A stretch of DNA of 64,000 nucleotides from Candidatus Omnitrophota bacterium (GTDB lineage Bacteria > Omnitrophota > Omnitrophia > Omnitrophales > Aquincolibacteriaceae), in the NCBI GenBank assembly GCA_043732705.1, contig JAYTHE010000029.1, forward strand, positions 70,445 to 134,444, given 5' to 3'. Made by a program: the position numbers and the translations under genes. Of the stretch, positions 506-64,000 are shown piece after piece. The stretch's first letter is position 1, and each line of letters opens with the position of its first letter. The notes under the pieces are model-generated. The model was not told where the DNA came from, did not search any database, and saw only the letters and a program-made list of their open reading frames with translations.

Positions 506-580
506 GGTTGCACCTTAACAGGGCAGAATATAACTATGCGTGAGTACCGGTTGCGCCTTGGCGCAGAGGTAAAATAAACT
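506..580. repeat. palindromic element (PE) family GGTTGNGC-loop-GCN'CAGAG: one degenerate copy (506-533) + one full copy (546-580) inside aspC-like 3' end
   Basis: ccggttgcgc cttg gcgcagaggtaaaataaac. Confidence 0.7.
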
Positions 581-4681: not shown

Positions 4682-5065
4682 TTATTTAGCTACGGGTTTC
4701 TTCGTCAGCCCGCCGATTGTCTTGCGCTTACCCTTGCGAGTACGTGCGTTGGTATGCGTGCGCTGTCCGCGAACCGGAAGCCCTTTAAGATGTCTTAATC
4801 CGCGATAAGTGCGAATATCCATCAAACGCTTGATGTTCTGGTGAATATCACGGCGCAAATCACCTTCGATTTTGCAGTCGCGCTGAAGCACGCCTGTAAT
4901 TGCCGAAAGTTCTGCTTCCGTTAAATCTTTGGCGCGCTTATCAGGATCGACTTTCGCCTTTTCCAAAATTTTGTAGGAAAGCGTGCGGCCTACACCAAAC
5001 AAATACGTAAGAGAGATAAAAGTTTTTTTGTCTCTCGGAATATCGACACCCAAAATACGCGGCAT
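4682..5065 (-). CDS. rpsM: 30S ribosomal protein S13
   Basis: [14 protein letters not shown]... Confidence 0.95.
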
Positions 5066-5076
5066 AGTTTCTCCTG

Positions 5077-5190
5077 TTATCCTTGACGTTGCTTATGCTT
5101 CGGATTTGTGCAAATCACATAAACCCGACGCTCGCGTCTTACAATTTTACAATTTTCACAAATTCTTTTTACTGACGAACGTACTTTCAT
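5077..5190 (-). CDS. rpmJ: 50S ribosomal protein L36
   Basis: Manual translation [37 protein letters not shown] (Cys4 zinc ribbon); not in ORF track because <60 aa. Confidence 0.85.
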
Positions 5191-5237
5191 TTTAAACCCC
5201 TTAACCTAACTTATTTTATCTTTACCCAGGCAACCTG

Positions 5238-5268
5238 CCGATTGCGCCGGCGGCGCAGAGGCAAAATG
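5238..5268. repeat. PE (infA-rpmJ spacer), tail overlaps infA stop
   Basis: ccgattgcgccggcggcgcagaggcaaaatg. Confidence 0.75.
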
Positions 5269-5487
5269 TCATTTCACGCGGTAAGTAATTCGCCCGCGGC
5301 TTAAATCATACGGTGAAAGTTCCACCTTAACCGAATCTCCCGGTAAAATGCGGATATAATTCATACGCATTTTTCCCGAAATATGCGCAAGAATAATGTG
5401 CCCATTTTCAAGTTGAACACGAAAGCGAGCATTAGGCAGCGGTTCCACCACTTTACCTTCTACTTCAATCGCTTCTTCTTTGGCCAT
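5269..5487 (-). CDS. infA: translation initiation factor IF-1
   Basis: 72 aa, S1-like fold sequence [30 protein letters not shown]. Confidence 0.95.
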
Positions 5488-5539
5488 TATTCTTACTTAT
5501 CTCTCTGTTTCGGCGACTACAACAGTTAAAACTGCTTTG

Positions 5540-6325
5540 CTATTTGACGGTTGGGCATCGCCCAGAGCCAAAGTTGTAATAGCCGCCTGTTAAATTTATA
5601 AATCCGTTTTCCGTAAACGCTATCGTATCTTCATAATGGCTTGCCCAGGAACGGTCTTTCGTTACCACGGTCCAGCCATCCGCTAAAATCTGTACTTCAT
5701 GCGAACCCTGCGTCACCATCGGCTCAATCGCCAAAACTAACCCCGGCTCAATCTTTAACCCTCTGCCCGCTTTCCCATAATTTGGAACCTGCGGTTCTTC
5801 ATGCAAACTTTTTCCGATTCCGTGCCCGACAAAATCTCGCACAACACCGTAACCGCGTGATTCAATATGCGCTTGAATCGCTGCTGACAAATCACCGATT
5901 TGACAGCCCGGTTTATACGCTGCAAGTCCCGCTTCCATTCCACCTTTGGAAGCATCGATCAACTTCTGGGTTTTCGCATCGGCTCCGCCGACGCACCAGG
6001 ATCTTGCCGCATCCGAATAAAAACTTTTGTATATCACTCCAATATCAAAACTTACCAGGTCGCCTTTTTTCAACTTTTTATTTCCCGGAATTCCATGCAC
6101 CACTTCTTCGTTCACCGAGATGCAGGCTACCTTCGGAAAACCGCGATATCCTTTAAATGCGGATGTGCCGCCATTTGCACGAATTATTTTATCCGCAATC
6201 GCGTCCAAATCATTCGTTGTCGCGTTTTCCACAACCGTCGGCTGCACAGCGGCAAAGATCTTTTGTATGATCATCGCCGCTTCCTGCATAATTTCAATCT
6301 CGCGCTTAGATTTAAGCTCGATCAT
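5540..6325 (-). CDS. map: methionine aminopeptidase type I (C-terminal 10 aa encoded by a repeat element)
   Basis: 261 aa; metal-binding D/D/H/E/E motifs (FVGHGIG, LAIEPM); location between adk and infA. Confidence 0.9.
   Translation of the reverse strand: MIELKSKREIEIMQEAAMIIQKIFAAVQPTVVENATTNDLDAIADKIIRANGGTSAFKGYRGFPKVACISVNEEVVHGIPGNKKLKKGDLVSFDIGVIYKSFYSDAARSWCVGGADAKTQKLIDASKGGMEAGLAAYKPGCQIGDLSAAIQAHIESRGYGVVRDFVGHGIGKSLHEEPQVPNYGKAGRGLKIEPGLVLAIEPMVTQGSHEVQILADGWTVVTKDRSWASHYEDTIAFTENGFINLTGGYYNFGSGRCPTVK
5546..5580. repeat. PE inside map 3' coding end
   Basis: gacggttgggcatcgcccagagccaaagttgtaat encodes FGSGRCPTVK. Confidence 0.8.
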
Positions 6326-9405: not shown

Positions 9406-9420
9406 ATTTCCTTCTTTATT

Positions 9421-9512
9421 TCTGCTCTGGGTTTCACCCAACCGCAAATTTTATTTTCTTACTTTATGTCTATTCCGCCGGTTGAGCTAAAGCTCAGAGG
9501 CAAAATTAATAG
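9421..9512. repeat. PE x2, opposite orientations (rplR-rpsE spacer)
   Basis: tctgctctgggtttcacccaaccgc ... gccggttgagctaaagctcagaggcaaaattaat. Confidence 0.8.
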
Positions 9513-9958: not shown

Positions 9959-10495
9959 ACTGCCGACTTTCTTACCTTGTTTGCGGCGCACTTGCTCGCC
10001 GACATAACGAATTCCCTTGCCCTTATACGGCTCCGGAGGACTAAAACTGCGAATTTCAGCGGCAGCTTGCCCCACCGACTGCTTATCTGCACCTGTAATA
10101 ACAATACGTGTTGGACTTGGACACTTGATATCAAGACCTTCTTCGATTTGGTAATCACTCGGGTGAGTAAAGCCAAGTACCATACTTAACACTTTACCCT
10201 TGATCGCCGCCTTAAAACCAACACCGATAAGCTCCAACTCTTTAACATATCCTTCAGTGACACCTTGAATCATATTACGAATGACTGCACGCGTTGTACC
10301 ATGCAAAGAGCGGTCAAGCGGCTCATCCGAAGAGCGGGTCACCACAACTTCTTTATCTTTTGATTCAACTTTGATTTTCGAGTGCACATCAAAATTAAGC
10401 TCCCCCTTAGGCCCCTTGACTTTGATCTTTTGACCCTGAATCGTAATTTGTACTTTATCCAGAACTGATACTGGTTTTCTTCCTACTCTCGACAT
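9956..10495 (-). CDS. rplF: 50S ribosomal protein L6
   Basis: MSRVGRKPVSV... Confidence 0.95.
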   Translation of the reverse strand: MSRVGRKPVSVLDKVQITIQGQKIKVKGPKGELNFDVHSKIKVESKDKEVVVTRSSDEPLDRSLHGTTRAVIRNMIQGVTEGYVKELELIGVGFKAAIKGKVLSMVLGFTHPSDYQIEEGLDIKCPSPTRIVITGADKQSVGQAAAEIRSFSPPEPYKGKGIRYVGEQVRRKQGKKVGS

Positions 10496-10537
10496 AATTC
10501 TTTTCCTTAAACTTTACTTAACCTTTTTAGCACTTAT

Positions 10538-10570
10538 ACGATTGCGCTTTAGCGCAGAGCAAAACAATAC
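10538..10570. repeat. PE (rpsH-rplF spacer)
   Basis: acgattgcgctttagcgcagagcaaaacaatac. Confidence 0.8.
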
Positions 10571-10578
10571 AGACAGCG

Positions 10579-10977
10579 TTACCAAACTGTGCAAATAAAT
10601 TCGCCGCCAACATTCATTTCTTTGGCCTGACGATCGGTCATAAGACCTTTTGAAGTCGAAACAATCGCGACGCCAAAACCACCCTGAACATGCGGAACTT
10701 TTTTAACACCAACATAGCGGCGCAATCCGGGAGTCGAAATACGGCGGATCCCCTGAATCGCAGGCTTGCGGCCTTTAACATATTTTAAATGAACGCGCAC
10801 AAACTTCTTGGCGCCTTCTTCAAAAACCTTCGAGCCTTGAATAAAACCTTCTTTTTCAAGGATCTCAAGAATCTTGACCGCAACGTTCGAAGAAGGAGTG
10901 GTGACCTTGTCCAAACGCGCCTGAGATGCATTGCGCAAAACCGTTAAAAAATCACCTACAAAATCACTTTGAGACAT
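10579..10977 (-). CDS. rpsH: 30S ribosomal protein S8
   Basis: 132 aa, DFVGDFLTVLRNA... Confidence 0.95.
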   Translation of the reverse strand: MSQSDFVGDFLTVLRNASQARLDKVTTPSSNVAVKILEILEKEGFIQGSKVFEEGAKKFVRVHLKYVKGRKPAIQGIRRISTPGLRRYVGVKKVPHVQGGFGVAIVSTSKGLMTDRQAKEMNVGGEFICTVW

Positions 10978-12853: not shown

Positions 12854-13150
12854 TTACGACGCGCTCCTGCTGGTTATATTTTTACTCTGGGTCTTCGACC
12901 CAACCGCGGCCTTGCTCTGAGACTTCGTCTCAGTCGCACTTTGTTGAGACTTTGTCTCAACTGCTTTTTGCTGATTCGCCACTGTTAGAACTCTTGCAAT
13001 ATCACGGCGCATTTCTTTAATCGTGGAATGTTTTTCCAGCTTGCCCAATTTCGCATCAAAACGAAGCTGCATGAGTTGCTTTTTCAGCTGTGTTTCTTTT
13101 TCCGCTAATTCTTCTTTGCTTAAATTTTGGTAATCAGCTACTTTTGCCAT
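12854..13150 (-). CDS. rpmC: 50S ribosomal protein L29 with ~35-aa C-terminal tail encoded by three palindromic repeat units
   Basis: MAKVADYQNLSKEELAEKETQLKKQLMQLRF L29 core; TAATATG junction with rplP; tail AVETKSQQSATETKSQSK... Confidence 0.85.
   Translation of the reverse strand: MAKVADYQNLSKEELAEKETQLKKQLMQLRFDAKLGKLEKHSTIKEMRRDIARVLTVANQQKAVETKSQQSATETKSQSKAAVGSKTQSKNITSRSAS
12876..12964. repeat. PE x3 forming the rpmC C-terminal tail
   Basis: tactctgggtcttcgacccaaccgcgg ; ctgagacttcgtctcag ; ttgagactttgtctcaa. Confidence 0.8.
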
Positions 13151-29898: not shown

Positions 29899-29940
29899 TT
29901 GATTCGAGCCTCCTTGATGATGATTTCAAAAACGTTTTAC

Positions 29941-30063
29941 TTTTTGCTCTGCGTTATGCGCAACCGCGGTTGGGCTTTTGCCCAGAGCCTAAACTTTACA
30001 GTGCGCCCATTTTTTTGCTCTGCTTTAAACGCCGGTTGCGGCGATGTCGCAGAGGCAAAAATA
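29941..30063. repeat. PE x3 (rplJ-rplL spacer)
   Basis: tttttgctctgcgttatgcgcaaccgc ; cgcggttgggcttttgcccagagcc ; gccggttgcggcgatgtcgcagaggcaaaaatatta. Confidence 0.8.
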
Positions 30064-31354: not shown

Positions 31355-31363
31355 ACTGTTTCC

Positions 31364-31393
31364 TTTTAACTCTGCGCTTTCGCGCAACCGTTA
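31364..31393. repeat. PE, inverted orientation (rplK-rplA spacer)
   Basis: ttttaactctgcgctttcgcgcaaccgtta. Confidence 0.75.
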
Positions 31394-32898: not shown

Positions 32899-32940
32899 CC
32901 GCCGGTTGCGCTGGCAACGCAGAGGCGAAATAATTCGTAC
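32899..32940. repeat. PE abutting tRNA-Trp 3' end
   Basis: ccgccggttgcgctggcaacgcagaggcgaaataattcgtac. Confidence 0.75.
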
Positions 32941-33014
32941 AGGCCTGGTAGGATTCGAACCTACAACAAGCGGTTTTGGAGACCGCCGCTCTAGCCAATT
33001 GGAGCTACAGGCCT
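32941..33014 (-). tRNA. trnW: tRNA-Trp (anticodon CCA)
   Basis: Cloverleaf by eye: acceptor AGGCCTG/CAGGCCT, D-loop AGCTCCAATTGGCTAGAGC, anticodon loop CTCCAAA, T-loop GGTTCGAATCC. Confidence 0.85.
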
Positions 33015-37002: not shown

Positions 37003-37828
37003 ACATATTGCCGGAGCTGCAGCAAATCATGAAGCAGTTCACGAAGCGCACGAGTTCCCCAACTTCATCCACTTACTTTCCGACCGCTTCCACGATTCCG
37101 CCATTTTGCATTTTATGCATCAGTGGGAAAACCTTTTTTTCTCAGGAACAATTTTAGTTCTCATTTCCTCCATCCTTTTGATTGCTGCTGCGCGTGACAC
37201 ATTGATTCCGGATGTTTTTCGAAATGCGGTCGAAGCGCTTGTCGAAGGCATTGAAAATTTCATTGTCAGCATCTTGGGCGAAGAAGGCCGCAAGCATGTT
37301 CCTTTTTTAGGCACAACTTTTCTTTATATCTTCTTCATGAATTACTGCGGGTTGTTTCCTTTTTTTAAATCTCCGACTTCTTCTTTAAACACTACGATTC
37401 CTTTGGCTTTGATTGCGGTTTGTTATATTCAATATTGGGGGCTTCGCGAACTAGGTTTTAAAAAATATTTACTGCATATCGCCGGCAGCCCGGAAGGCAT
37501 CGCCTCGTGGATCATCGGCGTCATTCTGCTTTTCCCGCTTAATATCATGCTTGAGTTCCTCGCTGTTCCATTAAGTTTATCCGTTCGTCTCTTCGCGAAC
37601 GTCTCGAGTGAAGACTCTTTGCTTTATCAATTTTCGCGCATTGTTTTGCGTTCATATTTATTCGCTTTTCCGCTGCAGCTTTTTGGAAATGCCCTCGCGT
37701 TTCTTTTCAGCGGAATTCAAGCTTTCGTTTTTACTTTGCTGACAACCGTTTATATCAAAGCCATGATGCCCGGTGAACATGGCCCCGAACACTCTGAGTC
37801 TTTGACTCAACCGGTATCGGGACATTAA
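36980..37828 (+). CDS. atpB: F0F1 ATP synthase subunit a
   Basis: conserved LSLSVRLFANV (essential Arg) motif. Confidence 0.85.
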   Translation: MTESIQSEHIAGAAANHEAVHEAHEFPNFIHLLSDRFHDSAILHFMHQWENLFFSGTILVLISSILLIAAARDTLIPDVFRNAVEALVEGIENFIVSILGEEGRKHVPFLGTTFLYIFFMNYCGLFPFFKSPTSSLNTTIPLALIAVCYIQYWGLRELGFKKYLLHIAGSPEGIASWIIGVILLFPLNIMLEFLAVPLSLSVRLFANVSSEDSLLYQFSRIVLRSYLFAFPLQLFGNALAFLFSGIQAFVFTLLTTVYIKAMMPGEHGPEHSESLTQPVSGH

Positions 37829-38610: not shown

Positions 38611-39191
38611 AAGACGCAGGAATTATCGCCAAACGCTACGCGGAAGCCCTTTTCAACCTCTGCCTGAAGGAAAAGAACCTTGGGGTGGTTGAAAAGTCTT
38701 TTGATTCGTTTGTAAATGAAACCACGAAGAACACAACTTTCGTGCACTTCATGGAGAGCCCCGTGATTCCGCATAAAAGCAAAGAAGCTGTGCTTGAAAA
38801 AATTATTCCTCAAGGAATGCCGCCGCTCTTGGTGCTTTTTTTGAAACTGGTCCTGGCTAAAAAAAGGTTTGAAGTTTTGACTTTGATCGAAAAAACTTTT
38901 CAACAGCGCTCGGAACGCTATCGCGGTGTTCATCGGGCGGAATTAACCACGGCGGTTGCCGTGGAGCTCGCGGCAGAAAAAAAACTAACCGCACTGCTTG
39001 AAAAGAAATTTTCTCGAGAGAAAATTTCGGCTTCTGAGCCTTCGGCTCAACCGGAAGTTATTCTTACAAAAAAAGTTGATCCCAAAATATTGGGCGGATT
39101 TATTTTAAAATGGGATGAGCTCGTCGTTGATGCGAGCTATCAAACAAAATTACGCGAAATGAAGCAGCGGCTCTATGCCACCGCGATCTAA
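38607..39191 (+). CDS. atpH: F0F1 ATP synthase subunit delta
   Basis: position between b and alpha; OSCP-like length. Confidence 0.8.
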   Translation: MKDAGIIAKRYAEALFNLCLKEKNLGVVEKSFDSFVNETTKNTTFVHFMESPVIPHKSKEAVLEKIIPQGMPPLLVLFLKLVLAKKRFEVLTLIEKTFQQRSERYRGVHRAELTTAVAVELAAEKKLTALLEKKFSREKISASEPSAQPEVILTKKVDPKILGGFILKWDELVVDASYQTKLREMKQRLYATAI

Positions 39192-43337: not shown

Positions 43338-43451
43338 TATTTGCCTCTGCGTTGTTTTTTAGTCTCTGCGTTTCACGCAACCGACAATAAAAATAACGCA
43401 ATTGGCAAAAACAAATTCCGGTTGCGCTTTGGCGCAGAGGAAAAAGAATAC
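43336..43451. repeat. PE x3 (one half, one inverted, one direct) in atpD-atpC spacer
   Basis: atatttgcctctgcg ; gtctctgcgtttcacgcaaccgac ; tccggttgcgctttggcgcagaggaaaaagaatac. Confidence 0.8.
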
Positions 43452-44218: not shown

Positions 44219-44523
44219 CAACTATCCCTTCTGAATATTATTTAGTCTTGGCCGGCATTCTTTTTTCCATCGGTCTTTTCGGGATTTTACTGCGCCGTAA
44301 CATCCTGATTATTCTTTTGTGTCTGGAACTGATGCTGAATGCCGCAAATCTTGTTTTAGTCACCGCCTCTTCGGTTCATGGCCATACTGACGGCCAAATT
44401 ATGGCCTTTTTTGTGATGGTGATTGCCGCGGTGGAAGTCACTATCGGCCTCGCGATTGCTGTTTTACTTTTTAAAGAAAAAAATACCGTCGACACCGGAG
44501 AGATTACATCTCTCAAAGGTTAA
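44215..44523 (+). CDS. nuoK: NADH-quinone oxidoreductase subunit K
   Basis: 102 aa, LCLELMLNAANL motif. Confidence 0.9.
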   Translation: MTTIPSEYYLVLAGILFSIGLFGILLRRNILIILLCLELMLNAANLVLVTASSVHGHTDGQIMAFFVMVIAAVEVTIGLAIAVLLFKEKNTVDTGEITSLKG

Positions 44524-44615
44524 AACTTAAAAGTCAAAACTCAAAACCTAAAACTTGCTCGAACAACTTTGGGTTCCAAGCTATGGTTTTAAGATTTTAG
44601 ATTTAAATTTTGAGC
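44522..44615. repeat. ~90-bp palindromic MITE-like element (nuoK-nuoL spacer)
   Basis: aaaacttaaaagtcaaaactcaaaacc ... gctatggttttaagattttagatttaaatttt; arms mutually reverse-complementary. Confidence 0.6.
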
Positions 44616-44620
44616 TTATT

Positions 44621-46594
44621 ATGCTGAGTTTATGTTGGACAATTTTGGGATTGCCGCTTGCCGCTTCCGCGGTGATTTCGCTTTTATTAATTCCCGCCGA
44701 AAAGGCCGCTAAAGATAAACATTTTTTCCGCACAGCATCTGCCTTTTTGTCCGTTCTTTCGATGGCAGCCGCATTCGGCTTAAGTCTTTTGCTTCTGCAG
44801 AACTTCCGCAGCATTGAAAACCATAGCGAGGTTTTTGAAACTTCCCTGAATTGGATGACTTTACCGCAATTCCGGATTGAAATCGGTTTGCTTCTCAATA
44901 ATCTTACATTGCTGATGCTTTTAATTGTGACCGGCGTATCTTTACTCGTAGCACTATTCTCCTCCCGGTACATGAAAGGCGAAGAGGGCTATTCCCGTTA
45001 TTTTGCCGCGCTTTCTTTTTTTGCTTTTTCAATGCTCGGAATCGTGCTTTCCAATAATTTGATCCAGATTTTTATTTTTTGGGAATTGGTCGGTGTGGCT
45101 TCTTATCTTTTAATCGGTTTCTGGTTTGAAAAGCCTTCGGCCAGCATCGCATCAAAAAAAGCTTTTCTCGTAACGCGTATCGGTGACGTTGGCATGATGC
45201 TTGGCATTCTGCTTTTGCTCGGGCTATTACTCAAATCCGGCACTGGTACATTTAACTTTCTTGAGTTGGAAACAAGACTGCATCAGTCTGCTTTACCGGC
45301 CGGGCTTTTCACCTTGGCCTGCATTGGTATTTTTTTCGGAGCCGTTGGTAAATCGGCGCAGGTGCCTTTGCATGTTTGGCTGCCGGATGCGATGGAAGGT
45401 CCGACACCGGCCAGTGCATTAATCCACGCCGCGACCATGGTTGCTGCGGGCGTGTTCATGCTTGCCCGTCTTTTCTTTTTATTTGAAATGAGTCCAGTAA
45501 CACTGCAAATCATAGCTTGGACCGGTATTATCACCGCTTTTCTCGCGGCATCCATTGCTGTTGTTCAAAATGACATTAAAAAGGTACTCGCCTACTCCAC
45601 GCTTTCGCAGCTGGGATATATGGTCATGGCCGTCGGCCTTAAAAACCCCGAAGCCGGAATGTTTCATTTAACAACCCACGCTTTTTTCAAAGCCTTGCTC
45701 TTTCTTGGCGCCGGCAGTTTGATCCATGCTCTGCACACGCAGGATATATGGGAGATGTCGGCACTGGTCCGTTCCGACCAAAGTCATTCTGCCTCTGCGT
45801 CTTCGACGCAACCGGCACATCGCAGCTGGCTAAAAACTATTCCTATCACAGGTCTTACTTTTCTAATCGGAACTGCCGCGCTTGCAGGGCTTCCTTTTAC
45901 GAGCGGTTTTTTCAGCAAAGAAGAAATTCTCGGTGCGGCTTCGACCGGTCCCCGCATTGTTTTTGGAATGGCACTTGCGGTTGTTTTTCTGACAGCTTTC
46001 TACATGGGCCGCGCTGTTACAATTATCTTCTGGAGCTCCGCTCCAACCAGACACCCTCAAAAACATGTGGAAATACATGAAGATAATTGGATGATTACTG
46101 TTCCGCTGCTTATCCTCGCTGTTTTTTCTTTAATTGCCGGCTATTTACCTTTCAAATCATTTTTAGAGAATCAAACAGCGCATGCTGAAATTCATCCGCA
46201 GTGGCTGGCTGCGGCTTCAGTCACCCTTGCTTGCTGCGGACTTTTACTCAGTTTTGTTCTTTACCGCCGGTCTTCTTCGCCTCTGAGCCAAGGGCTCAAC
46301 CGGAAAAACCTCCTAACTCAACTCGTCACATTTCTTAAAGAAAAATATTATTTCGATAAATTCTATGACTGGTTCATCATTCATGTTCAGGAAAATATCG
46401 CGCGTGCCGCGGACAACTTCGAACGTGTCGTGCTTGAACGCGGCGGCAATCAAGGTTTGGCGGGTTTAACGCAATTTCTGGGAAATACAGCGCGTAAATT
46501 ACAAAACGGCTGGATCCAAAGCTATGCTCTTGTTTTCGCAATCGGCTTTATTGCATTGGTTGCTTATCTTGTATTTTGCGGAGCAAAGTTATGA
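44621..46594 (+). CDS. nuoL: NADH-quinone oxidoreductase subunit L
   Basis: WLPDAMEGPTPASALIHAATMVAAG motif; start moved to ATG 44621 after the MITE-like spacer element. Confidence 0.9.
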   Translation: MLSLCWTILGLPLAASAVISLLLIPAEKAAKDKHFFRTASAFLSVLSMAAAFGLSLLLLQNFRSIENHSEVFETSLNWMTLPQFRIEIGLLLNNLTLLMLLIVTGVSLLVALFSSRYMKGEEGYSRYFAALSFFAFSMLGIVLSNNLIQIFIFWELVGVASYLLIGFWFEKPSASIASKKAFLVTRIGDVGMMLGILLLLGLLLKSGTGTFNFLELETRLHQSALPAGLFTLACIGIFFGAVGKSAQVPLHVWLPDAMEGPTPASALIHAATMVAAGVFMLARLFFLFEMSPVTLQIIAWTGIITAFLAASIAVVQNDIKKVLAYSTLSQLGYMVMAVGLKNPEAGMFHLTTHAFFKALLFLGAGSLIHALHTQDIWEMSALVRSDQSHSASASSTQPAHRSWLKTIPITGLTFLIGTAALAGLPFTSGFFSKEEILGAASTGPRIVFGMALAVVFLTAFYMGRAVTIIFWSSAPTRHPQKHVEIHEDNWMITVPLLILAVFSLIAGYLPFKSFLENQTAHAEIHPQWLAAASVTLACCGLLLSFVLYRRSSSPLSQGLNRKNLLTQLVTFLKEKYYFDKFYDWFIIHVQENIARAADNFERVVLERGGNQGLAGLTQFLGNTARKLQNGWIQSYALVFAIGFIALVAYLVFCGAKL

Positions 46595-51571: not shown

Positions 51572-51670
51572 CAAAGGTTAAAAGTAAAATCTGAAAATAT
51601 AACTTAAAGGCCAAAATTATCCGGACAGTTTTTATTTTTGGGCTATGGTTTTAATCTTTAAGATTTAACC
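51572..51670. repeat. left ~100-bp inverted repeat flanking EVE gene (MITE-like family)
   Basis: ...ataacttaaaggccaaaattatccggacagtttttatttttgggctatggttttaatctttaagatttaacc. Confidence 0.7.
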
Positions 51671-52119
51671 TCTAACCTAGTAATAATTTGCCAATGTTTT
51701 TCGGAAACAGGCTGTACAGAAAGCCGGCTGCCTTTTTGTAAAAGCAGCATTCCCTCAAGCCCTGTCATTTTTTTAAGCTCTTCCAAAGATAAAAAACGTT
51801 TAAATTTTTTTACGAAATTTAGATCCACAAGATACCAAGTCGGATTTTCTTTTTTACTTTTGGGATCATAATGCACATCTTTTTTATCAAACGCCGTGGG
51901 GTCAGGATAAGGTTTCCCCGCGACTTTGGCAATGCCGGCAATACCTGATGGCTCAGCATTTGAATAATAAAAGAAAACAAGATCCCCTGGTTTCATTTGA
52001 TCGCGCATAAAATTACGCGCTTGATAATTGCGCACGCCGTCCCACATCGTTTTACCGTCACGGGCAAGATCCTCTATGGAATATACATCCGGCTCGGACT
52101 TCATCAGCCAATAATTCAT
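51658..52119 (-). CDS. EVE (PUA-like) domain protein
   Basis: MNYWLMKSEPDVYSIEDL...WDGVRNYQARNFMR typical EVE N-terminus; flanked by ~105-bp inverted repeats. Confidence 0.8.
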   Translation of the reverse strand: MNYWLMKSEPDVYSIEDLARDGKTMWDGVRNYQARNFMRDQMKPGDLVFFYYSNAEPSGIAGIAKVAGKPYPDPTAFDKKDVHYDPKSKKENPTWYLVDLNFVKKFKRFLSLEELKKMTGLEGMLLLQKGSRLSVQPVSEKHWQIITRLEVKS

Positions 52120-52123
52120 AACA

Positions 52124-52235
52124 ACTTAAAGGTTAAAGCTCAAAAGTCAAAACCATAGCCCGAAACTAAAAACTGTCCGGATAGTTTTGGCCTTTAAGTT
52201 ATAGTTTTAAGCTTTTACCTTTAACTTTTAACCTT
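52124..52235. repeat. right ~105-bp inverted repeat flanking EVE gene
   Basis: reverse complement ~85% identical to 51572-51670, 40-bp core with one mismatch. Confidence 0.7.
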
Positions 52236-53832: not shown

Positions 53833-56800
53833 TTAAGCAGCAGAAAGCGTTAATTGGACGCCAAAGATTTGGGCTGCCAGGGCATCCAAGCCCACACTGT
53901 GAAACAGTTTGGCAATACCTTGGTCCGTGAGAATTCGATAGTCACCCATTTGCCGTAGTAAAGTAACCGTCTCAGAAGAATCATCCTGGCTCATCAAAGC
54001 TGAACGACGCGCATATTTTCCATGCGTTTGTGCGGCTAAGTCTTGCGGACTGACAAAGACCAGGCCTTGTCCCTTGAACCCTTTCGCCTCGATTAAATTT
54101 TTGAATTCCAGCCGTTGCTGTTCGTTTTCAGCATAAATCGCAAACAGTTTATCGCCCAATACTCGTTTATCTTGTAAGAATCCCTTTTGATGCACAAGTG
54201 CAGGACTTAAAACAACCAAATCCGCCGGTGATTTCATAATTTTATCCATAACAGTCGGCAACACCGGAGCACCAAAATATTGCCCATAAAACCTACTAAA
54301 CTCGGAACGCGTCATAGTATTAACAAATGACACTGAAAAAATATTCCTAGCCATTCTGGTGACTTCAATCTGAGATTGCGGCGAAACTATCAGTTCTTTT
54401 GTCCGCATTTCCGAGCGTAGCACTTTATCGGCAGCAACTGCGTTGTCTGGCAAATTCCACCTATAAATTAGTTCACGAATAAGAATACGATTGACCATTG
54501 ACTGCCTTGAAAATTCACGCTGCTGGCCTGGGTTTTTGACTTGTCTCATCAAAGTGAGCGACAACTCTCTGCTGAATGGATTAACAACGTGGTGCACAAG
54601 ACCCATTGCACCATCTTCACTCATTCTATTAAGAACCTCTTCGAGAGATATTCCTCGAAGATCTTGCATTGTTTTCAGCAAAGTCTGAACCTCTTGATCA
54701 TTCAAAAGCTCCGTATTTTTCATGCCATGAAAACGATCCGCCAATGTTTTTTCATCGTCGGAGCCATAAATCCATTGATCTCGAGCCACCAACGAATCTA
54801 AATATTTAGAAAAATTAAACTCCGTTTTTCTTTTTTCTTTTGCATCCCAAGCAAAAAATGATTTTGTTGTAAATGTTGTGTCTCGAGAAGCCGCTTTTAA
54901 GCGTGCCAAAACTAAAGAGAAACTTTGATCTTCGCTGTTTCTCAAAACCTCTTGCGATTCGGAGCGTGGAACGGTCACAGCTGGCGCAGTTTTTATTTCA
55001 AGTGGTTCAATAAAGCCGGTTTGCAAGCTATCACCACTTGGTATCACATGAACTAAAAATCCTTTGCGGGCTCCATCGCTAGCTAGATTTTCTTTCAACT
55101 GCATTTTTAAATTGCCTTTCACACCACTTTTTAGTTTGATTTCTACTGCCTCCTGGTCAACGCTATTGATTTTGATACGAACCAATTTCAAAATCTTTCC
55201 GGTATGGCTCAAATCTTTCCTTTGATCACGCTCAAGCTCTGCTGTAAAAGAAACTTCGAAGCGCGCAGCTTGGGTCCGCACTCCCGGGATAATTCCAAAT
55301 TGATAAATGCCGCTAACCTTAACACGTTTTCCAGGACGAAATAGTCCGCGGCTCGCTACTTGATTATGTAACTCTTCATCACGCGAATTATCGGGGCGCA
55401 AAGTCATAACAACACCAAATCTGTCCGGCGGTTCGCCTCTCGGTCCTTCTCCGTCCCGCGCTTCTGAACGGACACGCTTTGCAATAGCTCTTTTTATTTT
55501 TCCGAATAAAACTTTCCCATCTGGCGATGCAAGATAATGCAAGGTATGCGAATATTCTCCGGGATGTTTCCAAATATCAGTCTCAAAAAAATTAACGGAC
55601 ACGAGGTGAAACTCTTCGATTTCGTTAAGATTGTAATTTTCTTTTATTTTTTTCAACTCGGCATCAGAAACAAAATATAAATACGCCGTTGTAAACTCGC
55701 GATTGACCCCGTCTTCAAGATCATATTCACGATATATACCATTTTGTTTAGTAAGCGGAATGAACCGGTCTGAGTCAATACGAATACCCACTTCCTCTTC
55801 CGCTTCGCGGCCTGCGGCCGCAATCGGCAATTCGCCGAAATCAACATGGCCGTTCACCGAAACCTGCCATTTCCCCTTGGACGAAGCTTTATTCTGACTG
55901 CGTTTTTGAAACAACAATCTTCCTTTTGAGTCTACAAAATAAATATGTGCCGACATGTGATAAAAACCCTTTTTATGCGCCTCGTCTTTCTTTGCTTTGC
56001 GCCCGGAAAGAATATTGCCATGCTTGTCAGTTAAAGCCACCCCTTCAACGGCTTCGCTTGACTCCACCCCCATTTTTCCGCCCTTTAAAATTAAAACATC
56101 CTGCCGCATTTCGGAGCGCGGTGCTGCAAGCCCTTGGCTCGTGAAACCTTCCTGTCTTACGCTCTTTTCTGGTCTCACCTCAGACGGAGGAAGAATGAGA
56201 TCCGCGGGTTCTGCTTGCCGCAATAAATCAAATTGCTGCAGCGCATCCATCAACCCTTGAAATAAACTTTCTTCCTTTTTTTCTTCGGCGCTTAACGCTT
56301 CCATTTGCTGCCGAAAAGCACGGATTTTTTCTTCGACCTGGCGCTGTGCTTCTAAATCGGCTTTGTAGTCTTCATAATCGGCGCGGCCATGCAGATTTTC
56401 GATCATTCGGTTTTGATAATAATCCCGCTGCCATTGCAACTCAGACAGAGAGCCTTCTTTTGGGGCCGCTTGCCTTGCTTGAGTAGATTTTTCTGATTCA
56501 GTCATGTGTTTACGTACCGCTGCCTTTAATGCTTCTTGCCTTTGGTTTGTGAAATTAATATGAAACGGCCCACGAAGAGCTAGGTGACGGACCAAATCTA
56601 AATATTCAACTGTTTCATCCGACAAAGACCGCAGCCAATCTGCGATTCGTTTAAGTCTGGGCAAAGTGTCTTGCAGGAGAGGTTCAAACGAGTCAACCGG
56701 AAAAAATCCACGATTCATATAAGGTGTGGCAAAAAGCGTTGGCTGTCCGACCTTATTTAAAGCAAAGAATACGCCCCGCCCAAACTCGTCTTCTTTCCAC

Positions 56801-59800
56801 AGAGGTACATGGCTGCGAAGCCATTGCGCCGTGTTACGAATCGAAAAATAATTTTTTTTCAACCAACTATTAAGTAATTCAAACTCATGCTGATAAATGT
56901 CAGCCGCTAAAAATTCAAACCATACCGCTCGTCCTCCTTTAAATTGAAACGCATGGTTGTTTGAGCGATGCGCAGAGAAAACAACTTCCCATAAAGGCAT
57001 CAAACAAGCTTGCAGCAGCTGCCCGTCTGCCAATAATCCTTTTGCGGCAATTTGGAACGCAGTCATCGCGGGATTCGCCGTAAGAGCAGCGAATGCCCCT
57101 ATTAAATTTTGCATAAAAATTCGCCGCGTTTGGGAACGATCTAAATAATCTGCCGTGTGCAAAAACAAATCCTCCGCTAGCATCGGAATGCTTTCCACGA
57201 AACGCTGCGGCGACACAATTCGCCGCGCAGGTTCGTTTGCATTCTCGGCCTTTATTTTTTCAAAAACGGGCTGCCAATACGCAAACGCAAAGGGCTGTTT
57301 TGAAAGAAACTCTGAAAATTCTTCCGCAAGAGCGTCCTTCACTTCAAGCTTGGGCATTTTGAAACGCAGCCATTTCACTAAAAACTTGTTTTCTTCCCTT
57401 TGAATTTTTTCATGAATAAACCTTTCCGCGAGCTTAAGCAATGCCTGTTTATTCCCGACATCATCTCCCCCAACAATCAGCTCATTACGCATTTCGGAGC
57501 GTGCCATTTCCCGGTAAAGCGCAAAATGCTTTTCGGCATTCGCTTGCTGCGAAAAACTTTGAACTGCAAAAGCGCGCCCCGCTTTCCCCATAGCTCTGCG
57601 TTTTTCCGGATGATCCGCCAAATCCAAAATTGCTTCGGCCATCGCTTCTCTATCGCCTTGCTTCACAAAAACTCCCGCATCCGGGCTCAACGCTTGATCA
57701 ACGCCTTCGGCCTCATAGCTCACAACCGGAACTTCCATCGCTCCCGCCTCGATCGCCATCAATCCCAAAGATTCATAGCGCGTCGGAAACACGACTAAAT
57801 CGCTTGCGCGATAACCTTCGCGCACTACCGTTGGCGATCCCGCCGGCAGTATTTGAAAACAATCTTCTAAGTTTTCTCTTCTGATCCCTACAGCAACCGC
57901 GAGATTAATCTCACGGTTTTCATCTTGAGGCCCCATCAATACAAACTGGAATTTAAAATCAGGCCGCTTCTCCCTCAAAATTCTGGCGACTTCAATCAAT
58001 TCTGGCTGGTTTTTTTGTTTGCTGAACCGTGCAGGATAGAAAATCATGAATCGGTCTTTTTTATCGCCCAACATCTTTTCTCTGGCTTTCGCGCGATCTA
58101 CTTTTGCCGGATCTTCAAAATCAGTATCAATGCTGGCTTTGATTAAACGGGTCCTTGAGTCCCGCAATCGCGGAAGAGCAACGGTCGTATACCCGACCAA
58201 AACAGGCACAAGCCATGGCGCGGCCAAATTAAAAATCAAACGGATAACCCATTTAAGCGGCCAAAACCAACGCGCTTTGCCGGCATATAATCGATAAGGC
58301 ATATGATTGGTCGTCACAACCGGGATGCGCTTAATCCCAAAAAGCGCAAAATCAAAAGGCGAGTTCATTTGATGTGAATGAATCACATCGACAGGCTCAG
58401 ATCGCGCAATCTCAGAAACAACCGCGCGGATTTTTTTCATCCATCGAAAATCTCCCAATGGAGTATTGGGATAAGATTCAAAATCAGAAATCGGATGAAA
58501 AATCAATGTCCCTTGACCGTGTTTGAGTTCACCCCCTACTGTGTTGGCTTTTTCGGCGCGGTAAACAATATGAATGCGCACGGGATAACGCCGCGTCAGC
58601 TCTTCGTTAAGGCGGTGCACATAAGTCATCATGCCACCTTTGCGTAAAATTTCCCAATCCATGACCTGAACAATTGTCAGTTCGCGAACGGACGAACCTG
58701 CTCTCCGCATTTCGGAGCGGGCGTCCCATTTTTTTCGAAATTCAATCCATGGCTGAAACTGATTGAATTCAAAATGATCGGGAGCGGCGTCCACCCCGCT
58801 TGCTAAGCTCTGAACGGCAGCAATATCACGCCGGTTGGAATGTCCCGAATCCGCGTCCATTGTCCCTTCGATTAAATCAATAATCGCTTTAAAGCTTAAA
58901 TTTGAATTATCCAAATCAATCCAAAACTCGGTTTTGTAATTTGTCATTTCATCGCTCTGATTACCAACTTGAATCCCACGGCGACCATAACGATCGATTA
59001 GTATTCTTTGTTGTTCGGTGGGCAGTCCTGATGAACGGTAATAACTTTCAACTTCTACTTTCGGCTTAATTACATAACTAAACTCATATGCTGAGGGACC
59101 AAAACCGGTCACAATTTCATCGGTATTCAATAGTAGGTTTAACTCCCTAAAAAAATCTTTAACTGCTCCTTCGGTGATCCGTGATTCGGAACGACGATCA
59201 GAAGCTTTTTGATATTTCCAGCGAATTGCATGATCACGCGACACATTGATTAATTTACCTTCCGGCCGGCCTTGTGTATTAAGCAATTTCACCGGAATCA
59301 TTTCCGGCCCGCCGGCTGTGTCTTCTGAAACTTCCAGAACGATGAGTGCATCCACAGTGCCAATAATGATGCGGTCACCCATTTTAAAATCAGTATCAGC
59401 CTCTATATTATAAACGGGGCTATCAGACAAAAATCCATACCGTGATCGTTTAGTAAGAAAACTTATCTTTTCAATTTGGGCCGATGAGCTGTAATCCGCA
59501 TTGCTTTTTTGAGCGCGCGTATCACGATGCAAAAAAAGCAATCGATGCTCAGCGACTGACTTACGGCCTTGGCGCTGATAGGGATTTTCAAGATACCACT
59601 TCGCTAATTTTCTCTGCGGTTCAAGGCTCAGATTTTGAGCCGCCCAAGCAAGCGCGTTATCACGCGCCTTGCGGTCCGCGGGAGAAAACATCTGACCCAA
59701 ATAAATTGCCTCTAAAAGAATTTCAATATACGCAACTGACCAATGATTGTTACGTTTCGCATTTTTCCAAACCTCATCTTTCAGCGGCTTCAATTCATCA

Positions 59801-62800
59801 AAAAGGAATTGAATCGCCTTTTTCCCGCCTGCAAAAGACTGCATCAATGTCCAAGCCCACTTGTCTTCATAATAATCTTCAAGACTTACTACTTTAGACG
59901 GAATAGAAAATTCTAAAATCGCATCCGCGAACGAAAGCGCCTGTTGCGAGATTTGAAACGCAGGACTCATTGCTATTCCGGAGGTAAGATTTGAAGTAAT
60001 CGCTGACAACAAAGCCGTGCGGTCTTTTTTTAAAAATATTTTTTCAAATTTTCTGATGTTTGCTGCCTGTTCAGGAAAAGTTTTTTTAACTCGTTCTATA
60101 TAAGCCCAGTCAACATCACGCATTTCGGAACGACTCACCACACCAGATCTCGGATCTAACGAAACAGATCCGGGATCTGGGGGGGCCAACCGCATTTCGG
60201 AGCGGTCGTTTTGTTTTTTGGAAAGTGATTTGATTTCGTTCCATCGCGGCGGTCGGTTAATAAGGTTCGCAGCAATTGCGGCGAGTCCGTACCCTATAAA
60301 ATCTTTGGGGTCATAAGTCGTCCAAATAAATGCGCTTGGTAGCTGCACATATTTAGTCATTAACTCTTCGAGAGCAAACACAAGCGGAACTCCAACATTC
60401 GAAAGCAATAAGGCTGTCCGCAAATCGGCAAGCCATCCTTTATAAACGAAAATAATTGCGGTCACGCCATACCCAAACAAACTGCACGAAAGAGGGAACA
60501 ATAAATCCGGCAGCCAATCGAGCCATGTCCAATAATTTTCTTTCCCGATCGTTTGGGATCGAAGAACAAGAAGCATCTGATCCCACATTAAAAACGCTCC
60601 GCCGAAGCCCAACATCTTGATTGCATGGCTCAACTGGGTCGAAAAAAGCGCGCGACTCACCGAACTAGATCCCGGATCTAACGGAACAGATCCGGGATCT
60701 GGGGGGGCCAACCGCATTTCGGAACGGGTCCTTTGTTCTTTAAAAAGAGCTTTGATTTCGTTCCATCGCGGTGGCCGGTTAATAAGGTTCGCGGCAATTG
60801 CGGCGAGTCCGTACCCTATAAAATCTTTGGGGTCATAAGCTGTTCCAAGACCCCATTCCGGAACAGGCACCCACTTCGTCACGAGTTCTTCGATCGCAAA
60901 GGCAACTGGAACTCCAATGTTCGTAAGCAATAAGATAGCCCGTAAATCAGCGACCCATCCTTTAAATAAGGCAAAAATGGCTCCCCCGCTATATCCAATT
61001 AAGCTACAACTAAGAGGCACAAATAAATCTGGCAACCAATCAAGCCATGTCCAATAGTTTTCTCTCCCTATCGTTTGGCGCCGTAGCAAGCAAAGCGCTT
61101 CATCGAACACAAAAATGAGCCCACCCCACGTCATCATCCGAATGGCATGTTTAAGTTGCGCAATCGAAAGAGAGCGAATATCTTTGGCTTCTCCTTTGCT
61201 CGGTTTTTTACGCGATTCGGAACGAACGAAGCCGGGTGATGTGATTGAATCTAACCCTCTTATTTCTGATCGGAACTGATAAGCCGTAATGAGCTGCTGC
61301 ATCTGTTCGCCGGGACTTAGTTGTCCGGCCAGTATATTTAAAAATTGTCTTTCGCTTGCATGAAGTTTGTTCAACTCCGCATAAGCCTTTTGCGCCCATT
61401 CCTCGACTGTCCCCGGACTCTCCGCTAAATGAATCTCTCTTAGGGCAGCCTCCGCTCTTATAACCGCATCAATTTGTTTCAATGCGTACGCATGCGAAAA
61501 TTCGGACTCAGAGTGTCCAATCGCGGCCCCTTCGTCTTGTAGCAAATGGAGAATCGCGCGGACCACTGGTAACCTTGCCCATCCGTCCAGGATCTCTTGG
61601 ATGCCGGAAGCGTACACATACCATCGGATGTCACTTTCTGACCAATCCGCACTGCCGGTCCAATCTTTAAACCACTGCCTTAGAAGGTCGTAGCCGTCGG
61701 GGTTGATTTTAAAACCCAGTCCATATTCTGACTGGGTCTCCGGAAAATCAGTTTCGGCTTCGGCAGGTAATTTACTGCGATAGAGCGCGACAGCATCCAA
61801 TATTTTTTTCCGCAATTTTAAATCACCAAGCGCCTCCTCGGCTTTTCGTTTCTGGAGATCTTTTTTAACTTCAGCCGCATACAGTTTTCTATCTTGTTCG
61901 ACCTGCCTGACGTTTACGCAAATACTCACAACAATTCCGGTTTCAGCATGAAGGTAATAGATGCGCCCACCATCTTTTGAAAGCGCGATTTTTTTCCAAA
62001 TATGTCCGTTCGTTTTAAATATTTTTGCGCGCTCCAGACTTTTCACAACCCATAAATTGCCAAAAGATTGGGGCATGTTTTTCGATTGGTTTTGTATTGA
62101 TCCGGAAATAAATTCCCCTTCCTTTATAAACTCACCGGTATCATCCGCTTTGATTTTTAATTCCTGTAATTTTCCTGAAAAAACAGGCGTCTGGACCGTG
62201 GGCAAATAACCAATATAAGTGATTTGCATCATCCCAATACCGGCCGGCCACAAACCATATTTTTGCCCCGCGGCCGCTTGATGCTGAGTTAACGCCGCTA
62301 AAAGCTGCGGGCTAACAAGAGCGGGCGAGGCCGAATTTTCCAATTTCCAATCACGCATTTGCGGTAAAAAGTGATACAGCCGATCCGAGTTTTGGCCTTG
62401 CATGTAAAGATGCACAAGCAAAGTGCGATAAACCAACAAGTCTTGTGCGGATAATTGGTTTAAATCATGCGGATGCCAGCCTGTCGGGTACATGGCATAC
62501 AAAGCAAAGATTTTGGGATCGGTCCGAGTCCAGGTTAAATCATTTGATTGAACGGCAAATCGAAGACGTTTATAGCCTGAAAGATCGGGCCGGCCCGCAT
62601 AAGACTGCATTTCATTTAAAATGGCCAAAACTTGCTTTCTTTTGGGTTCATCCAACTTTTCAAAAAGGTCAATTCCAAACAAGCCTATTTTTAATCTCTT
62701 CAGAATTTCTACGGAATCAAAATGAGTTTGATTATTAAATATGGTTTGCAACTCATGGGCGCGCTCTTCCGGATAAGCCGTGACATACTGCCGCACTTCA

Positions 62801-63969: not shown

Positions 63970-64000
63970 CGCGAGCGTTTTAACATAATCATTCTCAGAG

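Follow-up and report, generated by a model that had tools for sequence, protein, structure and literature searches.

The last ten amino acids of the methionine aminopeptidase (MAP) encoded in the stretch of DNA analyzed here (64 kb, referred to as the window) are encoded by one copy of a short hairpin repeat, which is read in frame at the 3' end of the map gene. Comparison with the other copies of the family confirmed that this copy is a true repeat member and not a chance palindrome. On the basis of homology and structural modeling, the product is predicted to be a normal type I MAP followed by a disordered tail of roughly 12 residues. We consider it probable that a REP-like hairpin repeat landed in map before the ancestral stop codon and gave rise to a tail that is tolerated by the protein.

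The map gene and the fold of its product

In the window, map is part of the minus-strand gene order secY-adk-map-infA-rpmJ-rpsM-rpsK-rpsD (coordinates of all features are shown in Table 1), and the best homologs of its product were found in Candidatus Omnitrophota MAGs. The whole catalytic core is homologous to solved type I MAPs, which places the protein among the type I methionine aminopeptidases (peptidase M24A). The Pfam family Peptidase_M24 (PF00557) matched residues 11-239 (1.2e-47, 162.8 bits), and 49 solved MAP sequences were matched at E<=1e-30 using phmmer, with alignments that stopped at residues 242-247; for example, 1o0x_A could be aligned with residues 1-245 (E=9e-65). In the AF2 model (mean pLDDT 90, pTM 0.88), the last strand was formed by residues 241-244, and residues 250-261 had pLDDT values below 50 and no secondary structure. 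Residues N244, L245 and T246 were invariant across 26 aligned homologs, in which the distant Omnitrophota MAPs stopped 2-6 residues past this NLT motif, and had no tail like that of the window MAP. The condition under which the initial annotation would have been refuted, an extended C-terminus of this sequence conserved in unrelated MAPs, was not observed. Pfam, the PDB alignments and AF2 all agreed with the initial annotation in placing the end of the canonical type I MAP fold at ..FINLT(GG).

The 3' codons of map are, in the sense direction, TTT GGC TCT GGG CGA TGC CCA ACC GTC AAA TAG (FGSGRCPTVK and the stop codon), and the full ending of the protein is ..FTENGFINLTGGYYNFGSGRCPTVK before the stop. 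An assembly frameshift is unlikely because a separate Logan assembly (L008) carries the identical sequence (100% identity over 4524 nt).

Table 1 Positions of map, its hairpin repeat copy and related features in the window
Feature	Position	Strand	Basis or remark
map (type I methionine aminopeptidase)	5540..6325	minus	261 aa; stop TAG 5540-5542; ORF list
Conserved MAP catalytic fold, residues 1-247 (..FINLTG)	5585..6325	minus	PDB alignments, AF2, homologs
Ten tail codons F G S G R C P T V K	5543..5572	minus	Translation
Hairpin repeat copy at map 3' end	5545..5574	minus	R1 33.1 bits; R2 31.2 bits
5' lower stem GGC (5567-5569) and internal-loop UC (5565-5566)	5565..5569	minus	Columns 6-8 pair with 30-32
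Upper stem 5' arm, sense TGGGC	5560..5564	minus	Alignment columns 11-15
Loop, sense GAT	5557..5559	minus	Alignment A3
Upper stem 3' arm, sense GCCCA	5552..5556	minus	Alignment columns 22-26
Internal-loop ACC (5549-5551) and 3' lower stem GTC (5546-5548)	5546..5551	minus	Structure alignment
map-infA spacer, outside repeat	5488..5539	minus	Model match stops short of spacer
Next family copy after map	5236..5267	minus	R1 40.0 bits; core starts 6 nt past infA stop
Aminotransferase tail, in-frame copy (..LPLRQGATGTHA, stop)	545..575	minus	R1
L29 tail, in-frame copy, orientation opposite to gene	12878..12909	plus	In-frame copy
Ribosomal protein L3, near end, ASEPSAQP then 11 residues	17242..17273	minus	In-frame copy
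ATP synthase a tail (HSESLTQPVSGH, stop)	37785..37816	plus	In-frame copy
ATP synthase delta, internal, ASEPSAQP	39025..39056	plus	In-frame copy
NuoL-like subunit, internal, ASASSTQP	45786..45817	plus	In-frame copy
NuoL-like subunit, second internal copy, SPLSQGLNR	46274..46305	plus	R1

A family of hairpin repeats in the window

The repeat was first noticed as many copies of CGGTTG-NGC-loop-GCN-CAGAGCC-AAAA. With a loose definition of this motif, 34 copies could be identified in the 64-kb window versus none in 20 shuffles, and 43 copies, or about one in every 1.5 kb, were recovered at E<0.02 using a covariance model (R1). On the strand usually present in the mRNA, the consensus of 37 aligned copies was nTTTT-G(G/C)C-TC-TGNGC-loop-GCNCA-ACC-G(C/G)n. 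The element is thus approximately 30 nt long and consists of a TTTT run, a lower stem of 3 bp, an asymmetric internal loop (UC/ACC), an upper stem of 5-6 bp and a terminal loop, the last of which varies among copies (3-6 nt). The T run belongs to the unit, since inverted copies carry it too.

The proposed structure was supported by the alignment. Across the 37 copies, 94.3% of the cells could pair, and none of 500 shuffles equaled either the pairing or the covariation score; when the 3' partners were shifted by 1-3 columns, pairing dropped to only 22-40%. Almost all cells of the upper stem (99.5%; columns 11-15 versus 22-26) were paired. Covariation was observed in both stems, for example, at column pair 7-31 of the lower stem (GC 15, CG 12, AU 3, GU 3 and UA 1) and at column pair 13-24 of the upper stem (CG 15, AU 12, GC 8 and UA 2). 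CTCTG was invariant or nearly so across copies, and CAACCG mostly so, whereas the top pairs of the upper stem were free to vary with complementarity kept. When orthologous copies were compared, both partners had changed in 9 of 45 stem pairs, and there was no pair in which just one partner had changed. The flanks of these copies differed at 3 of 165 positions, a figure that is inflated by ascertainment and hence not usable as proof of purifying selection, since the comparison was limited to copies still matching the motif. As a separate observation, the copies were not near-identical, unlike the products of a recent copy-and-paste burst, and their stems and loops differed at most sites.

The map copy fits this family well. 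Its sense strand is ACTTT GGC TC TGGGC GAT GCCCA ACC GTC A, with a G.U at column pair 7-31 and a predicted fold energy of -8.7 kcal/mol, and it was recovered (E=3e-7) by a second covariance model (R2), which was built in leave-one-out manner from the other 36 copies only. The 24-mer at the map end had no match in 100 shuffles. Codons 1-9 of the tail lie inside the element, and the K codon and the stop codon lie just 3' of it. The initial annotation had attributed FGSGRCPTVK to a palindromic element at 5546-5580, and the matches of both models bear this out: the plus-strand string that it quoted, gacggttgggcatcgcccagagcc, was found exactly at 5546-5569, and the place was right, with both ends a few bases away from those of the tail and of the element (Table 1). 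Its further suggestion that the element also supplied the downstream spacer was not supported, as the element ends 3 nt before the stop codon and other copies have no counterpart of that spacer.

Either strand of the element may be the functional one. The mean fold energy was -10.3 kcal/mol for the strand antisense to most genes versus -9.0 kcal/mol for the sense strand (p=3e-6), and the antisense strand folds more stably because an invariant T.G there corresponds to C.A on the sense strand. On the other hand, wobble pairs at the variable positions slightly favored the sense strand (10 G.U versus 3 A.C).

We also searched for known families. Scans of the whole window and eight loci at the Rfam gathering threshold detected only tRNAs (two of them in the window), and Rfam scans at permissive settings, which covered the surroundings of window elements and of those in the alphaproteobacterial locus L018, gave no match at the elements. 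Integron attC sites, K-turns and group II intron domain V were also considered and rejected, as the order of conserved blocks and the pairing do not fit. A literature search on palindromic repeats of Omnitrophota returned nothing relevant, and no paper was found for the motif. The family appears to be undescribed so far, and a repeat-derived C-terminal extension as such is a known phenomenon.

Placement of the elements and in-frame copies

Of the 43 copies, 34 shared the transcribed orientation (p=1.7e-4). This orientation flips together with the gene strand at approximately 35 kb and 49.5 kb, which disfavors a rule based on the replication strand. Among the sense-oriented intergenic copies (n=18), the hairpin core started 2-25 nt past the upstream stop codon (median 11), and in 16 of them within 17 nt. 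Many cistrons within ribosomal-protein operons have a copy directly behind them; a typical arrangement is the 6-nt gap between the stop codon of infA (5269-5487, minus) and the core of the copy that follows it. Another copy (32900-32931) follows a tRNA gene (32940-33014). Inverted doublets were present at 9418/9476, 43357/43416 and 29940/29964. Given their position inside operons, the elements are likely transcribed within mRNAs.

Eight of the approximately 43 copies overlapped coding sequence, which is more than usual for REPs. Besides the map copy, seven were found in frame in conserved genes (an aminotransferase, L29, L3, ATP synthase a and delta, and twice a NuoL-like subunit; Table 1), in line with the remark of the initial annotation that map was not the only such case. 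When compared with solved OSCP/delta chains, ATP synthase delta has 8-10 additional residues at its copy, and the first NuoL-like copy lies in a region that is gapped against cyanobacterial NdhF. No clear length insertion versus PDB homologs could be observed for the second NuoL-like copy.

Turnover of the element among relatives

Most close relatives of the window MAP (85-92% identity) end in GGYAKKFA, GGYAKKIA, GGYEKKFA or GGYAKQF directly before the stop codon. The same short endings, with no tail, were found within the 90% cluster to which the query itself belongs. In the DNA of loci L001, L005, L006 and L007, map has the short ending without a hairpin and is followed by infA after 8-35 nt, compared with 52 nt in the window. 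The L001 spacer (TTTTGAATGTGTGCGGGCGCTAATTAGG) was considered as a decayed element, and the similarity was too weak to call. The ancestral map ending, TTCGCCTGA, may itself be an element remnant.

An element at the site and in the frame of the window copy was identified in P0005 (L002/L003; TTC GGT TCT GGG CGT TTC CCA ACC GCG .., encoding FGSGRFPTANAVKS and stop) and in P0007 (L004; TTT GGC TCT GGG GTG AGT ACC CCA ACC GCT CGA TAG, encoding FGSGVSTPTAR and stop). Their stems differ (GGG/CCC and GGGGT/ACCCC, respectively) and are still complementary. The sister genome L022 (MAG GFS_12873), which grouped with the window at 100% bootstrap, has the map end GTC GGC TCT CAG CGA ATC TCA ACC GCC and the MAP tail VGSQRISTADKKDKQE before the stop; here the flanks GGCTCT..CAACCGCC were kept and the pairing was lost. 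This decay shows that the map copy is not strongly maintained. Overall, base pairing at the map site was kept in three of the four element-bearing lineages while the peptide varied: the tails (FGSGRFPT.., FGSGVSTPT.. and VGSQRIST..) differ among lineages and track the hairpin, with no conserved peptide, and tails of the FGSG..PT type were confined to close relatives whose DNA carries the element.

The Phe codon of the ancestral ..KKFA ending aligns with the T run of the element, so that the junction lies immediately 3' of AAG TT(T/C) and two codons upstream of the old stop. In the tree, L004 grouped with the element-free L001 (86% bootstrap), and the remainder of the tree was poorly resolved. 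As the element-bearing map lineages were non-monophyletic, one has to assume either that the element was gained three times at a single nucleotide position or that it was gained once and then lost several times.

Turnover was also evident at other sites when genomes that are about 80% identical were compared. The infA-rpmJ junction was empty in L001 and L002, where the spacer measures 8-11 nt, whereas four other loci, including L005 and L006, have a copy there; the rpsM-rpsK copy in the window has the orientation opposite to that in L001 and L002; and the sister genome L022 lacks equivalents of several of the copies found in the window. The alignments of filled and empty sites revealed no target-site duplication and no terminal inverted repeats, and inserted DNA beyond the hairpin was not conserved between lineages. 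Two more distant Omnitrophota, at 67-70% MAP identity, together had no copy in 41.5 kb of the syntenic cluster, and their intergenic spacers were tiny.

Occurrence of the motif in other phyla

A 21-base pattern, for which approximately one chance match was expected, was used to scan a genome collection. Matches in Omnitrophota MAGs were found in GFS_12873 (11 loci), SRP300315_co1_21 (5), UBA2337 (3) and SRP135725_co2_92 (2). In addition, the pattern matched MAGs of Hyphomicrobiales, Cohaesibacteraceae and Rhizobiaceae and one MAG of Caldilineaceae (Chloroflexota). The motif outside Omnitrophota (for example, TTTTGGCTCTGGGCCTTCGGCCCAACCGC) occurred several times per locus, and its R1 scores were as high as those of window copies. 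A metagenome scan gave the same picture, with GC content of 43-70%, and no match was detected in the viral contigs scanned with the motif. In alphaproteobacterial contigs, the element was located 5 nt past a stop codon and in the opposite orientation in two clear cases (L079 and L083); it should be noted that orientation is clear only for these two, because the longest-ORF rule is unreliable in GC-rich DNA.

This recurrence across phyla is the most interesting lead of the analysis. One idea, which we consider unlikely, is that TTTT-GGCUCUG-(variable stem-loop)-CAACCG would be the recognition site of one putative trans-acting factor that has moved between phyla; it is drawn from the shared motif itself. 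Such a factor could be a new class of HUH/RAYT-like single-strand DNA enzymes or an RNA-binding or RNA-processing protein. If this were true, recognition by the factor would depend on the conserved asymmetric internal loop and not on the sequence of the stem. The factor would seed or maintain hairpins directly behind stop codons, and core proteins would routinely have their C-termini and loops rewritten in steps of 8-10 residues.

Comparison with known repeats

RAYT-associated REPs (sensu Nunvar / Ton-Hoang) are characterized by a conserved 5' head, GT(A/G)G, and by a cognate gene for RAYT (a Y1 HUH transposase) that has REPs on its flanks. With REPs (repetitive extragenic palindromic sequences of E. 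coli and other bacteria), the window element shares its small size (14-40 nt in REPs), an imperfectly palindromic sequence able to fold into a stem-loop, a high copy number with a common consensus and a location at gene 3' ends and between cistrons. The distance from the preceding stop codon is often no more than approximately 15 nt, and inverted doublets occur occasionally. Unlike REPs, the window element has no GTAG-type head in its consensus, and its conserved parts are the internal loop and the 5' T run, with variation at the tops of the stems. The family is also much denser (43 copies in 64 kb), is biased in orientation with transcription and has frequent coding copies. No RayT homolog could be detected by tblastn and phmmer with E. 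coli RayT in 641 kb (the window and the other loci analyzed), which is a very partial sample of the genomes. With regard to function, REPs of E. coli that lie within 15 nt of a stop codon reportedly stall ribosomes at termination, shield mRNA from 3' exonucleases and stabilize the mRNA upstream (PMC12306157 and PMC5082802, with reference to Liang et al. 2015 and Khemici & Carpousis 2004).

A second resemblance is to Rickettsia palindromic elements (RPEs), which are inserted in frame into unrelated conserved genes, where they contribute peptide segments and leave the ORF intact (PMC10969869, citing Ogata et al. 2000, 2002). The window element is likewise read in frame in conserved protein genes with the ORF preserved. 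However, RPEs are approximately 100-150 bp long and encode a conserved peptide of 30-50 residues, whereas the window element is approximately 30 nt long, about five times shorter, and contributes 8-10 residues, the sequence of which varies with stem and frame. The two have no sequence similarity and occur in different phyla, and most window copies are intergenic, right after stop codons. Other small non-autonomous repeats, such as MITEs, ERIC, BOX, Correia and QMITE, can also produce in-frame fusions or new C-termini (PMC10969869). Elements of the MITE type are 100-300 bp long and are bounded by terminal inverted repeats, usually together with target-site duplications; the window element showed none of these features. 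Intrinsic terminators share with it a GC-rich hairpin downstream of genes, but the element lacks a 3' U tract on either strand and is found inside operons and ORFs.

Origin of the MAP tail and alternative explanations

The explanation that we favor is as follows. This Omnitrophota lineage would accumulate REP-like hairpin repeats just behind stop codons, and in the ancestor of the window genome and L022, a copy may have come to lie two codons inside map. Placed right after the Phe codon of ..GGYAKKFA, it would have removed the old stop, so that the ribosome would read the hairpin in a stop-free frame as the small and polar residues GSGRCPTV and halt at the next TAG. The event was presumably an insertion rather than evolution in situ. 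By comparison with E. coli REPs, which influence mRNA decay and termination when they are close to stop codons, the family might act in mRNA as a 3' or intercistronic stem-loop that is read through its conserved internal loop, and it would spread by some mechanism of copying or conversion.

A different possibility, to which we give appreciable although less than even weight, is that the repeats are nothing more than selfish mobile DNA comparable to REP/REPIN elements or MITEs, mobilized by a RAYT- or IS200-like single-strand transposase encoded elsewhere in the genome, with no host function and with the map tail as tolerated damage. The restriction to a lineage, with no copies in the two more distant Omnitrophota, would be expected in that case, as would junctions that are filled or empty among genomes of about 80% identity, the copy that is inverted at its junction, the inverted doublets and the decay of the map copy in L022. 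In-frame insertions in the NuoL-like subunit, ATP synthase delta and other proteins, where a regulatory hairpin is unexpected, point in the same direction, and the motif in unrelated phyla fits an enzyme and substrate that travel together. However, targeting by replication strand would not produce an orientation that tracks transcription in 34 of 43 copies and flips twice within 15 kb, and stems and loops that are diverse yet always paired do not resemble a young copy-and-paste family. The missing 5' GTAG head, the lack of matches in viral contigs and, as weak evidence, the lack of a RayT-like ORF in 641 kb also speak against it.

Two further readings were considered. Transcription terminators or attenuators, one of which would overlap the end of map by chance, are very unlikely to account for the elements: GC-rich hairpins do occur right after genes, including one tRNA gene, but the transcribed strand has its T run ahead of the hairpin and the other strand has an A run behind it, so that neither carries a U tract after the hairpin; moreover, a terminator scan of 1-20 kb gave 30 sites versus 29.7 expected, none of them at an element, and copies follow cistrons within ribosomal-protein operons and sit inside ORFs. 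Still less credible, and largely refuted, is the idea that FGSGRCPTVK is a selected functional extension of MAP, for example, for ribosome docking, with the resemblance to the repeat being secondary. It could draw on the variable C-termini of type I MAPs (E. coli MAP extends 17 residues past the aligned core) and on the four lineages that keep the ORF open through the element. Nevertheless, the tail DNA matches a model of structure and sequence derived from 36 other loci, its residues differ (RC, RF, VST and QRIS) while the nucleotides are complementary in three of four lineages, the nearest homologs (at least 90% identity) have no tail, the tail is predicted to be disordered, and similar peptides (ASEPSAQP and HSESLTQP) are found in unrelated proteins at every place where translation passes through the repeat in that frame. 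We infer that the tail is tolerated and neutral and that it is not selected as a peptide.

Implications

For genome annotation, our data indicate that, in this Omnitrophota lineage, short tails or insertions derived from the repeat are present in MAP and in at least six further core proteins, and these segments should not be taken for functional domains or frameshift errors. From an evolutionary point of view, this is a very compact case of a repeat adding to proteins, in which a hairpin of 8-10 codons becomes a disordered peptide rich in Gly, Ser, Pro and Thr, and in which genomes that have diverged by only approximately 20% already differ by gains, decay and flips in orientation. With regard to mechanism, covarying stems around a conserved internal loop, tight placement behind stop codons and a motif shared across phyla make the family a good system for studying the recognition and placement of REP-like elements, and it is suited to asking whether REP-like elements tune translation termination or mRNA processing in ribosomal-protein operons.

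Hairpin repeat copies within the window

Several copies of the hairpin repeat occurred in pairs (see table below). In one pair, two copies were arranged head to head and shared the palindromic junction CAACCG|CGGTTG, forming a doublet that resembled a REPIN but had no spacer. Two further inverted doublets, with copies approximately 30 nt apart, and one tandem pair were also observed. Between the L11 and L1 genes, a copy in inverted orientation followed the L11 stop codon with a gap of 0 nt and extended over the region where L1 is predicted to start; this orientation was kept in two other genomes (L015 and L019), and only the loop differed.

The minus strand carried a giant ORF, at least 3388 aa long and with glycosyltransferase GT4/GT1 and NUDIX domains, that continued past the end of the window. 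Over these 10 kb, the hairpin repeat had no copy that could be called with confidence, whereas elsewhere in the window there was approximately one per 1.5 kb. Within the ORF, a stretch of 196 nt was directly repeated, the two copies being 89% identical and 522 nt apart, and a related 30-nt block was also present. The direct repeat probably reflects internal protein repeats. In addition, a 153-aa ORF was flanked by a 116-nt inverted repeat (78% complementary) made up of A-rich units such as CTCAAAGGTTAAAAC, which recurred at two other positions. This is a second repeat family that has no relation to the hairpin repeat.

Locations of repeat features in the window and in loci of other genomes or metagenome contigs (L numbers)
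Feature	Location
Head-to-head pair	window 29940-29994
Inverted doublets	window 9418-9506, 43357-43446
Tandem pair	window 12878-12941
L11-L1 junction copy	window 31363-31393
Giant ORF	window 53833-63999
196-nt direct repeat	window 60131-60326, 60653-60848
Related 30-nt block	window 58705
116-nt inverted repeat	window 51573-51688, 52113-52228
153-aa ORF	window 51658-52119
Recurring A-rich units	window 44512-44554, 44560
Hairpin motifs in other MAGs and in metagenome contigs	L018:3718-3859, L026:5153-5219, L023:4949-5014, L027:4378-4409, L011:4518-4547, L087:12690-12824, L077:2914-3057, L069:57-131
L022 palindromes, for example GCTTTGCGA..TCGCAAAGC; GCATGCC..GGCATGC	orthologous to window 5180-5290 and 10480-10600
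L005 rpsM end	orthologous to window about 4682-4700

Hairpin motifs and junctions in other genomes

The motif TTTT-GGCTCTG-hairpin-CAACCGC was also present, with multiple copies at each locus, in MAGs of Hyphomicrobiales, Cohaesibacteraceae and Rhizobiaceae, in one Caldilineaceae MAG and in metagenome contigs with a GC content of 52-70%, and scored up to 42.8 bits with the covariance model of the repeat (R1). Two clear copies lay 5 nt after stop codons, in reversed orientation compared with the Omnitrophota copies, and one copy came immediately after a tRNA gene.

With regard to orthologous junctions, the last codons of rpsM (S13) in the relative L005 (AAG CCG GTT GCG AAA TAA, KPVAK*) contained CCGGTTGCG, identical to the flank and first part of the stem of the hairpin repeat, at the exact place of the copy in the window and in the relatives L001 and L002. 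This could be a coincidence or a hint of a target or seed sequence. In the sister genome (L022), some junctions that carry the family hairpin in the window held a different, perfect palindrome that lacked the conserved flanks; thus, other kinds of intercistronic hairpin also take these sites.
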